IMG/VR virus record: IMGVR_UViG_3300031257_000001 | Span: 1 to 64,000 of that record | Strand: one strand, 5' to 3' | Origin: a virus | DNA length: 64,000 nucleotides | Part shown: positions 2,668 to 14,274 of the stretch, piece after piece | Position numbering within the stretch: position 1 is the first letter of the stretch | Layout of the letters: each line of letters opens with the position of its first letter | Notes under the pieces: generated by a model | Told to the model about the DNA's origin: nothing | Databases searched by the model: none | What the model saw: the letters and a program-made list of their open reading frames with translations, nothing else | Position numbers and translations under genes: made by a program

Positions 2668-3270
2668 ATGCCAATTGAACGACACCAGATCGCCACGACC
2701 GACCCGCAGACCATCGAACGATTCGCCAAGGGCGGGAACGCCATCATCACCGTCGTGTCCATGCGCTCCGGGAGCCGGATGACCTACCGCGTGGCCAAGC
2801 TGGATCGAATCTTCGCCATCAAGGTGCTCAGCGGCCCTGACAACAGCGACCCGAAGCTGTACCAGTACATCGGCAAGGCGTACCTGGACAGACAGGATCG
2901 TTTCGTCCACGGAGGTCCCAAGGCGAGGGCCGGCGTTGACGCACCGAGCGTTCAACTGTTCACGTGGTTCTGGCGGAATCTTCATGCGGCGCTCCGCGGG
3001 ACCTCCAACACGCTCGACCAGTGCGAGGTTTGGCACGAGGGGCGTTGTGGCAAGTGCGGGCACCGCCTCACGGTCCCTGAGAGCCTTGCCACAGGACTGG
3101 GGCCAGAGTGTTCCAAGGTGCTTGGCGTGGTCCGTCCCAGGGTAGCGTCCAGGCGGAACGCCAAGCGTGGCAAGGTCGCACAGCCTCGTGTCACGACGGC
3201 CGACGATCGGCACCTTGGTCTTGACGACTCAGAGCATGAGATGCAACGGATTGAAGCGGAGGGCGACTGA
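2668..3270 (+). CDS. DUF6011-like zinc-finger protein
   Basis: CGKCGHRLTVPESLATGLGPEC; RBS GGAGATCGGCC-ATG. Confidence 0.75.
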   Translation: MPIERHQIATTDPQTIERFAKGGNAIITVVSMRSGSRMTYRVAKLDRIFAIKVLSGPDNSDPKLYQYIGKAYLDRQDRFVHGGPKARAGVDAPSVQLFTWFWRNLHAALRGTSNTLDQCEVWHEGRCGKCGHRLTVPESLATGLGPECSKVLGVVRPRVASRRNAKRGKVAQPRVTTADDRHLGLDDSEHEMQRIEAEGD

Positions 3271-12255: not shown

Positions 12256-12984
12256 ATGGCTGCAAGAAAAGTGGAGAGTAAAAAGCAGAGAAGCGTGGAT
12301 GTGGTGATCACCCCAGTGATCACGCATGAGTTCGACTTGACGTTGGTCGGCACCAGCATCCTCGTGGTCAATTCGATGGTCGGAAAGCTTGCTGAGGAGC
12401 TGCGCCGGTCGCGATTCGGGACTGCCAAACCCAAGAAGCACGCTGACGAGGCTTCGTACAATCGTGAGTGCCGTGAGCGCTTCATGGCAGCGCGGTATCG
12501 TCTCCAGAGCGGTCAGGACGGGTTCCCGGCGGTCACCATCAAATACGCACTCGTGGATGAGTGTACGTTCCTGGATGGTGTGGAGAAAACCAAGGTGCGG
12601 GCCGGCCTCACCGTCAACGGAGGTGAGTTCTTGTGCCCCATCTTCCACGACGCAGAAGAGCCCACGATGCGTGAGGATGTCGTCCGTGTGGGTGGTCGAG
12701 CGGGCCGTGGCTCCGGGACTGCTTCGCTGGCCTATCGGCCCGAGTATCGCAACTGGCGCATCCCGGTCCGTGTCACCTACGATCCGACCCTCGTGACGCC
12801 ACAACAGATCGTTGCGTTGGCCAGCCGCGCCGGCTTCCACCAGGGCATCGGCGAATGGCGCAAGCCCAAGGGCGGCGAGTGGGGCCGCTTCAGGGTTGAA
12901 GAGGGCGTGTCCATCCCTGCCAACCTGTTTCCCAAGACCAAGGGTTCCAAGCCTAGCAAGGCTCGGCGCGGGAAGGCAGCGTGA
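12256..12984 (+). CDS. Solitary Cas7/Csm3-like RAMP protein (candidate RNA-guided effector)
   Basis: RAMP motifs in order: beta1 FDLTLVGTSILVVN; GFPAVTIKYAL (cf. IPGSSxKGxL); thumb REDVVRVG...SLAYRPEY; G-rich loop GIGEWRKPKGGEWGRF; RBS GGAGATCAGCAA-ATG. Confidence 0.75.
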   Translation: MAARKVESKKQRSVDVVITPVITHEFDLTLVGTSILVVNSMVGKLAEELRRSRFGTAKPKKHADEASYNRECRERFMAARYRLQSGQDGFPAVTIKYALVDECTFLDGVEKTKVRAGLTVNGGEFLCPIFHDAEEPTMREDVVRVGGRAGRGSGTASLAYRPEYRNWRIPVRVTYDPTLVTPQQIVALASRAGFHQGIGEWRKPKGGEWGRFRVEEGVSIPANLFPKTKGSKPSKARRGKAA

Positions 12985-13478
12985 GTCGCTTCAGGTGGAT
13001 AACGGCGCGCTTCAAGGGCCGAGCCGATGCGCAGAAGGTCGGTGAGGCCCTGGAGGCCATCGAGCGCCGTGACGGCGACCTGTCCCCGGCCGCCATCGTT
13101 GAAGCGGCGAGGGATCCGAGGTCACCACTCCACCCGTGCTTCACTTGGGCAGACGATGCAGCAGCAGAGAAGCACAGGGAGACCGAGGCCCGTGCCGTCG
13201 TTCGTTCTTGCCGCATCGTGGTCAGAATCAAAGGAGGTGGAAAGAAGACACGCCGCAAGTGGATCAGCGTCAGAATTGACACAGGCGAGGAGCGCCCACG
13301 TCGTGGGTACGTTTCCATCACCAAAGTCCGCAGCGGTGAATTGGCAGACGAGATCATGGCCGAAGCAGCGCAAGGACTTCGCCAATGGGCTGGGCGCTAC
13401 AGCGAGCTGCGAGGGCGGCTCCCCGGGTTGTTCCAGGCCATTGACGAGGTGCTGGCCGAGTACACGAAGGCCGCATGA
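12981..13478 (+). CDS. Phage accessory protein coupled to the RAMP gene
   Basis: GTGA overlap; LSPAAIVEAARDPRSPLHPCFTWADDAAAEKHR...AR motif; its stop lies directly before the array. Confidence 0.75.
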   Translation: MSRFRWITARFKGRADAQKVGEALEAIERRDGDLSPAAIVEAARDPRSPLHPCFTWADDAAAEKHRETEARAVVRSCRIVVRIKGGGKKTRRKWISVRIDTGEERPRRGYVSITKVRSGELADEIMAEAAQGLRQWAGRYSELRGRLPGLFQAIDEVLAEYTKAA

Positions 13479-13505
13479 GGGCACGAGTTGCCCACGGAAC
13501 GGATC

Positions 13506-13935
13506 GGCTGCTACGGACAAGGATGGTACGCAGTTGAGGAGGCTGGTCGCGATTTGATCTGAGAGGGCTGGTCGTGTGTGGCTTGGCTGCTACGGACAAG
13601 GCTGGTCTTCTACTGAGGAGAATAGCCGTGATTGGAGGTCAGAGGACTGGTCGTGGGCTGTTTGGCTGCTCTGGAATTGTCTGGTGGTGTTGTGTCCAGA
13701 ATGGCATCGTTGTCGTGTGAACTGTGTAGTTTGGAATTGATCGGAGCGCGCCGGTGAGGCTGCTTCGGAGTGGATCAGCGCGGCAAGCGTTAGCAGGGAA
13801 CAGGATAGGCTGGAAGGGAATGGTGAGGCTGCTTCGGGTTGGAACGTAGCGCCAATGGCATGGTTGGTTCCGACGTGAGATGCTTGGTTCCGACGTGACG
13901 CGAGCGGCAAGGTTGCATCTGTTCAGAGAGGCTGC
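13506..13935 (+). ncRNA. Pentamer-periodic guide-like array: (NN + nGn) units delimited by GGCTGC
   Basis: GG(C/T)TGC at 13506, 13585, 13664, 13758, 13827, 13911, 13930; spacings 79, 79, 94, 69, 84, 19 are all 5n+4; G at one phase in 72 of 80 pentamers and never A; RNA status is inferred. Confidence 0.85.
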
Positions 13936-13956
13936 AGCTCATCTGTTTCTACAAAA

Positions 13957-14000
13957 GCGGGTGATGGTCGCACGGTGGGTTCGACTCCCGCCGGCCCGCC
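13957..14000 (+). ncRNA. tRNA-like mini-domain (acceptor-like stem plus T-arm, no anticodon arm)
   Basis: GCGGGT(13957-62)/GCCCGC(13994-99); CGGTGGG-TTCGACT-CCCGCCG; bulge GATGGTCGCA with a D-loop-like GG. Confidence 0.6.
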
Positions 14001-14001
14001 T

Positions 14002-14274
14002 ATGGCACGTAGCCTCAAGCCGGGAACCCGCAACTACAACTTCATGGACATGGCGGGCGTCCGCATCGGGCGCGTGGTGGTCACGTCCGAGGCATCCAGC
14101 GCTTGCGGGAATGCCCGGTGGCACTGCCAGTGTGACTGCGGCGGGACCTTCATCGACCAGGGCATCCACCTCCGCTCCGTCATGAAGTCGGAGCGCCTGG
14201 GCAAGCGCAAGTATCCTTTCAGCTGTCCCGAGTGCCGTCCCAAACGGAAGGGCACCTATCAGAGGCGCACATGA
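14002..14274 (+). CDS. Small Zn-binding protein resembling the WxCxCDCG module of HNH/AP2 endonucleases
   Basis: IGRVVV...RWHCQCDCG...SCPEC; no nuclease domain. Confidence 0.6.
   Translation: MARSLKPGTRNYNFMDMAGVRIGRVVVTSEASSACGNARWHCQCDCGGTFIDQGIHLRSVMKSERLGKRKYPFSCPECRPKRKGTYQRRT

Follow-up and report, generated by a model that had tools for sequence, protein, structure and literature searches.

The last two units of a staggered pentamer array in a salt-marsh phage: probable VIPR guides and an in-register duplication

Introduction

VIPR was described in 2026 as a CRISPR-related gene silencer. Its RAMP protein, Vipr, polymerises along a vrRNA that is composed of GGY/NN pentamers (10.64898/2026.04.26.720920). 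A guide comprises 9-16 or more such units. The NN dinucleotides pair with double-stranded DNA such that every third target base is skipped, usually the wobble position of a codon, and rival phages and satellites are thereby silenced at the level of transcription (10.64898/2026.04.26.720920; 10.64898/2026.04.26.720927). Seven types of VIPR systems have been published. In the first preprint (10.64898/2026.04.26.720920) the guides have no self-targets above the null, and the legend of fig. S18 describes staggered vrRNA arrays, in which neighbouring units share one base. Silencing of the excision recombinase of a satellite by VIPR has been demonstrated experimentally (10.64898/2026.10.15.759431), and non-canonical scaffold triplets related to xGx have been reported (10.64898/2026.10.21.760802). 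The system, its code, the staggered arrays and the targeting of recombinases are already published. What is not in print is an in-register duplication as a trace of guide evolution. Two VIPR preprints, searched by term, contained neither the word 'slippage' nor a duplication linked to guides, and the origin and turnover of guides are not treated in them.

Here we examine the last two of five units in a pentamer array of an uncultivated phage. In a preliminary description of the locus it was proposed that units 4 and 5 target less conserved parts of an integrase gene and that guides evolve by slippage in phase rather than by Cas1-Cas2 acquisition. We conclude, with a probability of roughly 0.75, that units 4 and 5 are guides, the last in a staggered VIPR array located 3' of vipr and a putative partner gene on the same strand. 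Targets were found for neither unit.

The phage genome and the vipr locus

The array is contained in the IMG/VR record IMGVR_UViG_3300031257_000001, a phage genome of 104,326 bp that is rated complete, has a GC content of 59% and originates from salt marsh. The window, by which we mean the whole stretch of DNA analysed, comprises its first 64 kb. The relatives of its terminase share only ~25% identity. No tRNA or tmRNA gene and no Rfam family was recognised. Genes for tyrosine and serine recombinases are absent from the genome, and the phage is integrase-free. The array region (13479-14001, 523 nt) is non-coding and is located 3' of two overlapping genes on the + strand:

12256-12984, + strand: vipr gene, 242 aa, encoding a RAMP/Cas7-like putative guide-binding protein (profile, tblastn, AF2 model)
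12981-13478, + strand: putative vap-like partner gene of 165 aa that overlaps the end of vipr; phrog_15946, a PHROG annotated as 'unknown function'

No Pfam family was matched by the vipr protein. A profile constructed from the 242-aa protein and nine homologues yielded a single match among the PDB sequences, 36pp_D, designated 'SUSP1 Vipr protein' (E=9e-10), with the match spanning the C-terminal 59 residues. In tblastn searches the protein matched phiSUSP1 (NC_028808.2) and 151 other phage records. The AlphaFold (AF2) model (pLDDT 72.6) was most similar in Foldseek to Cas7/Csm3 chains (E about 6e-6), which have the RAMP fold. The vipr product is a minimal RAMP protein homologous to a characterised Vipr.

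The partner gene matched no named family, Pfam included. It is kept at the same place in L027, a relative with an 86%-identical Vipr, and occurs in three distant loci as well. No terminator-like site separates it from the array. Period-5 arrays adjoining vipr on the same (+) strand and consisting of 5n-1 units were present in all of the Vipr loci compared, 16 distant ones from IMG/VR and the close one. Directly 3' of the array, a 90-aa ORF (14002-14274), the start codon of which overlaps the end of the tRNA-like element described below, encodes a small zinc-finger/HNH-like protein with a four-cysteine spacing and a weak match to an HNH-endonuclease PHROG (phrog_374, E=5e-8).

Architecture of the array

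The elements of the array, all on the + strand, are as follows:

13479-13493, + strand: leader hairpin GGGCA-CGAGT-TGCCC, start of the array
13513-13760, + strand: units 1-3, with 15, 15 and 18 pentamers, used as positive controls
13753-13764, + strand: junction GGTGAGGCTGCT preceding unit 4; four extra bases shift the pentamer phase by -1
13765-13829, + strand: unit 4, guide tract of 13 pentamers (NN + xGx), central G in 12/13
13834-13913, + strand: unit 5, guide tract of 16 pentamers, central G in 14/16
13859-13898, + strand: in-register tandem duplication of four pentamers within unit 5, 18/20 bases identical
13911-13916, + strand: degenerate junction GGTTGC 3' of unit 5
13914-14001, + strand: closing part of the array, containing two hairpins and a mini-helix that resembles the T-arm/acceptor of a tRNA (13957-14000), although no tRNA gene was called; folding energy -33.8 kcal/mol (z=-1.2)

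The array contains 77 pentamers in five units of 15, 15, 18, 13 and 16. Each pentamer is formed by two free bases (NN), which are compositionally flat, and a triplet with a G at its centre in 69 of the 77 cases. The scaffold triplet can be written as [G/T]-G-N; only the central G is conserved (90%), with pentamer positions 3 and 5 being variable. Since the GGCTGCT-like junctions each add four bases, every unit has a length of 5n-1 (79, 79, 94, 69 and 84), and from one unit to the next the register falls by one. The one-base overlap and the phase shift of -1 at every junction are those of a staggered vrRNA array, and the relatives are alike in this respect. Across the 104-kb genome, the period-5 G signal of the array is the strongest on the + strand.

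Direct repeats of 79 and 69 nt together with a tRNA-like 3' end could also belong to protein-binding repeats that act at the DNA level, such as replication iterons, a pac site or an attP containing the 3' end of a tRNA. However, the period is precisely 5 nt and confined to one strand, the units measure 5n-1, the phage lacks an integrase, and units 2 and 3 decode in codon phase to integrase motifs (see below). Every Vipr homologue that was fetched carries a similar array, by which the DNA-repeat reading is effectively refuted. Its attP/tRNA-fragment version is ruled out by a genome that contains neither a tyrosine nor a serine recombinase.

The degenerate [G/T]-G-N scaffold was seen in the window (13513-13913) and in L027 (2826-3075), and GGC/GGT is used by the 16 more distant Vipr loci. 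The degenerate form may mark a Vipr subclade with relaxed triplet recognition. In L027 the array is broken by short GC-rich hairpins with GGTTCGG (2985-3005, 3062-3110) that recall the T-arm closing the array of the window.

Re-examination of units 4 and 5 largely bore out how they had been parsed. Parsed in phase, unit 4 consists exactly of the dinucleotides TC GT TC GC AA TT AG AC AT CT AG AT GA and unit 5 of TC TT AC GC AA CA TT TC CG GA TT TC CG CG GC AA, and the peptides decoded from the reverse complement of unit 4 and from the forward strand of unit 5 were translated correctly. The start of unit 4 had been placed at 13764, which is one base early and corresponds to the last T of the GGCTGCT junction; the first NN is at 13765, and the coordinates are otherwise correct. 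Compared with shuffled sequences, neither the tract of unit 4 (z=-0.5) nor that of unit 5 (z=-0.3) is more structured, as would be expected of single-stranded tracts bound by protein.

Units 2 and 3 match integrase motifs

Units 1-3 provided the standard by which units 4 and 5 could be judged. A 9-NN seed of unit 3 retrieved four true integrases, from Smithella, Aminicenantes, Planctomycetota and one other source. On these four, unit 3 matches 26-28/36 in phase at box II, with the top value of 28/36 on L048, and the best in-phase match of unit 2 is the Arg box. Integrase loci fetched from those queries (80 viral, 30 from the Desulfobacterota phylum and 30 from the Pseudomonadota phylum) were reduced to 36 and then 59 non-redundant genes, which were aligned. 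For each guide in each orientation, the column of the alignment that scored best in phase on average was compared with the scores of guides whose NN order had been shuffled. The reverse complement of unit 3 is assigned to box II with z=7.8 on 36 genes and z=5.8 on 59 genes, and unit 2, read forward, to the Arg box with z=3.4 and z=4.0, respectively. For unit 1, read forward, the Arg box is the best column, at a score that is not significant. Units 2 and 3 obey the skip-one rule on integrase motifs, with the skipped base at the codon wobble position; no such match was found for units 4 and 5.

The integrase family nearest to the unit 3 target, with the motif Q-G-V-D-L-K-T-V-Q-Q-I-M-G-H-K (L031, L033, L048, L050, L143-L171), is very common in the Smithella phylum, in which 136 of 301 sampled genomes contain a match at E<=1e-30.

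The orientation in which the units are read was estimated from the composition of codon positions 1-2 relative to that of their reverse complement, trained on the long ORFs of the phage itself. The log-odds are +2.0 bits for unit 1 and +4.7 bits for unit 2, both correctly forward, and -3.2 bits for unit 3, correctly reverse. Unit 4, with -2.4 bits, and unit 5, with -3.4 bits, are assigned to the reverse reading, albeit at weak odds of 5-12 to 1. The junction and the first five NN are common to units 4 and 5, over 34 nt with 79% identity (13753-13786 and 13822-13855), and this common start fits with both units being read in reverse; unit 5 was therefore probably read on the wrong strand in the preliminary description.

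Units 4 and 5 on the integrase family

A degenerate peptide of 13-16 codons that is read by eye nearly always resembles some helix, which calls for caution with regard to the integrase claim for units 4 and 5. The shuffled-guide controls separate the real motif guides, units 2 and 3, from the unproven ones, units 4 and 5.

For unit 4 it had been suggested that the reverse complement targets the L-R-x-x-L-x-x-A helix in the core-binding domain of the integrase family that is hit by units 1-3. This helix (consensus A-L-L-S-H-A-F-T-K-A-V-E-W) is indeed the best family-wide in-phase column of the unit 4 reverse complement in both alignments, it is the top or joint-top in-phase match in two of the loci (L053 and L055), and the composition of unit 4 favours the same orientation; moreover, targeting of a recombinase by VIPR has a published precedent (10.64898/2026.10.15.759431). 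Within the window of the core-binding helix alone, the score reaches z=2.3 (P=0.035), a value that is not independent because the window was picked from the same resemblance. Gene-wide, however, the score is ordinary for shuffled guides, with z=0.3 and P=0.36 on 36 genes and z=1.0 and P=0.12 on 59 genes. The best single gene gives 16/26, no integrase was found with a match of at least 80%, and integrases that match unit 3 at 72-78% give unit 4 just 13-15/26. The core-binding helix as the target of unit 4 is weakly suggested and unproven; we regard it as unlikely.

The corresponding proposal for unit 5, according to which the forward strand targets the integrase helix preceding HxLRH, fares worse. 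It originated from a visual resemblance, and computation lends it no support: the window before HxLRH yields z=-1.1 and P=0.89 (z=-0.8 after removal of the duplication), and gene-wide z does not exceed 0.4 in either orientation, with or without the duplication. The composition prefers the other strand by 3.4-3.6 bits, and the first five NN are shared with unit 4, which had been read in the opposite sense. At the level of the integrase family this reading is close to refuted. The check that had been suggested, namely whether units 4 and 5 map to the integrases found by means of units 1-3, gave a null result for unit 5 and a chance-level result gene-wide for unit 4. What persists of an integrase-directed array is the gapped code and the match of units 2 and 3 to integrase motifs; gene-wide, no integrase match above the null was obtained for units 4 and 5.

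Direct searches for targets

Collections of contigs were scanned with exact gapped seeds, which targets with scattered mismatches would escape. Among viral contigs there were no exact gapped matches to NN1-9 and NN5-13 of unit 4, nor were there any to NN2-12 of unit 4 among metagenome contigs or to the 13-NN core of unit 3 among genome contigs. A 9-NN seed of unit 2 found five matches in viral contigs, one of which is in a true integrase (L009, 21/30), with the others attributable to chance. In a protein-level scan of 120 homologues of this integrase, units 4 and 5 remained at the null, as they did on 169 fetched loci (0.75 Mb).

Two matches to unit 5 were rejected. NN1-9 of unit 5 matched L028 with 21/32, out of frame. 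The de-duplicated form of unit 5 matched positions 2426-2451 of L029, a viral contig of 41.9 kb, with 21/24, the only match of at least 80% seen; it runs antisense to a 375-aa ORF that lacks an annotation, out of codon phase, with the skipped base at codon position 1. Both were treated as chance because approximately one random match per seed is expected from the other seeds. The preliminary description would have given up integrase targeting if the best gapped matches were located outside integrase genes or out of codon phase. Formally, the L029 match is of this kind, but it looks like chance. Among the viral, metagenome and genome collections scanned with exact seeds there is no credible in-phase target with at least 80% NN identity for unit 4 or unit 5. 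Self-targets were likewise sought; the best matches had 59-69% NN identity, all inside the null of shuffled guides, and none reached 80%.

The duplication in unit 5 and variation among arrays

The repeat TTGGTTCCGACGTGA in unit 5 occurs at 13864 and 13884, in register and four pentamers apart, as originally described. It extends to 18 of 20 identical bases between 13859-13878 and 13879-13898, which correspond to pentamers 6-9 and 10-13, and is recognised by TRF with a period of 20, 94% matches and a score of 71. In only 2 of 3000 pentamer shuffles was an in-phase duplication as similar obtained (P about 0.0007).

Duplication is also evident at a larger scale. Units 1 and 2 form a tandem pair of 79 nt, and a 16-nt stretch of the unit 4 junction recurs identically at 13822-13837. 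Among their first five NN, units 4 and 5 agree in three and differ by one base in two, after which they diverge completely. Since units 4 and 5 have only the junction and five NN in common, the boundaries of a duplication need not match those of the units.

Contigs from three other salt-marsh runs (X2, X4 and X5) contain units 4 and 5 in identical form, including the duplication, except for position 13913, where a T>C exchange in X2 and X5 converts the GGTTGC after unit 5 to the canonical GGCTGC. The X5 contig, a single contig of low depth, contains the 79-nt Arg-box unit a third time, with a joint from 13661 back to 13583 and seven differences, and departs into a different guide sequence after 13674. 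At the level of contig evidence, X5 would represent natural variation of the array by unit duplication and guide replacement. In L027 the guides are wholly different from those in the window, and the leader hairpin with the next ~8 bases is the only part of the array that the two have in common. An alignment with L027, the closest relative, in search of 5n indels had none that could be assessed, the guides being unalignable. The TRF periods in related arrays belong exclusively to the 5n or 5n-1 classes, a count that carries little weight as it is biased by the periodicity of the scaffold.

The sequences support a mode of change by tandem duplication that preserves the register and by wholesale replacement of guides. 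No acquisition genes (cas1/cas2) are present at the locus. The earlier suggestion of slippage in phase instead of Cas1-Cas2 acquisition agrees with their absence and with a duplication that is in register; what it can draw on is a single fixed event and the duplications of units. Tentatively, and with somewhat less than even confidence, we suggest that vrRNA arrays may make new guides without acquisition machinery: sequence would be duplicated in tandem with the register preserved and would then diverge or be replaced in part. Duplications below the size of a unit would measure 5n and those of an entire unit 5n-1. Snapshots of the process would be the duplication in unit 5, the pair of units 1 and 2, the start that units 4 and 5 have in common and the additional 79-nt unit of X5. 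The array and its natural variants display in-register duplication at two scales in one locus, and guides are completely replaced between two phages that share 86% identity in Vipr. The duplication in unit 5 itself may create a new specificity, may be neutral, or may mirror a repeat in the target, for which the reverse reading would be R-R-[DE]-[KN]-S-R-[DE]-[KN].

Proposed function of units 4 and 5

A role of the last two units as VIPR guides accords with the anatomy of the locus, the homology of Vipr, the unit lengths of 5n-1, the skip-one code of units 2 and 3, and scaffold statistics that are the same in units 4 and 5. By analogy to systems already characterised, the array RNA would serve for the polymerisation of Vipr protomers. 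Assuming that this Vipr binds triplets, each protomer would hold one xGx scaffold triplet by its central G and expose the NN, which would pair with double-stranded DNA, skip every third base and thereby silence a gene of a competing mobile element. Units 4 and 5 would, on the same analogy, be expressed, loaded and functional. Their composition and their shared first five NN suggest that they are complementary to the coding sense strand and hence are to be read as reverse complements. The duplication in unit 5 would be tolerated if an in-register match of nine units suffices, or it would mirror a repeat in the target.

Alternatively, units 4 and/or 5 might be decaying, non-functional duplicates, the 3' two-thirds of which have drifted, with the register of unit 5 towards its old target broken by the duplication and the target gone. 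The two units do resemble diverged duplicates, the junction after unit 5 is degenerate (GGTTGC) in this genome, and no target was found for either. However, the scaffold quality of units 4 and 5 (central G in 12/13 and 14/16) equals that of units 1-3, their sequence is identical in the three other samples apart from position 13913, close relatives swap guides wholesale instead of letting them decay, and missing targets are to be expected for an uncultivated host. Decay is therefore improbable, and units 4 and 5 as guide units of the VIPR array are the preferred reading.

Comparison with known systems

With the Cas7 proteins of Class 1 CRISPR systems (Csm3, type VII Cas7), the Vipr of the window has in common the RAMP fold and, by homology, a periodic protein filament in which the guide RNA has flipped bases. 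The period is 6 in Cas7 and 5 here, where two of five guide bases would pair and where repeats and spacers as well as Cas1-Cas2 are absent.

The Type II VIPR of the Escherichia phage SUSP1 (PDB 36pp; 10.64898/2026.04.26.720927; 10.64898/2026.10.15.759431) possesses a Vipr homologous to that of the window. Its vrRNAs are separate RNAs of ~100 nt with structured pseudoknot tails, whereas here units of 69-94 nt are linked by junctions of ~7-12 nt. The targets of SUSP1, F5 satellites, are known, in contrast to units 4 and 5 of the window, for which none were found. The guides of SUSP1 address codon positions 1-2 in the recombinase gene of a rival element, and units 2 and 3 here match integrase genes at the same codon positions.

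Closest are the staggered VIPR arrays (10.64898/2026.04.26.720920, legend of fig. S18). They differ from the array of the window by a GGY scaffold in place of [G/T]-G-N and by the tRNA-like mini-helix with which the array ends here. Alike are the Vipr RAMP protein with a putative partner and a pentamer array, the units of 5n-1, the location on a phage, the absence of cas1/cas2 and, in units 2 and 3, the skip-one code.
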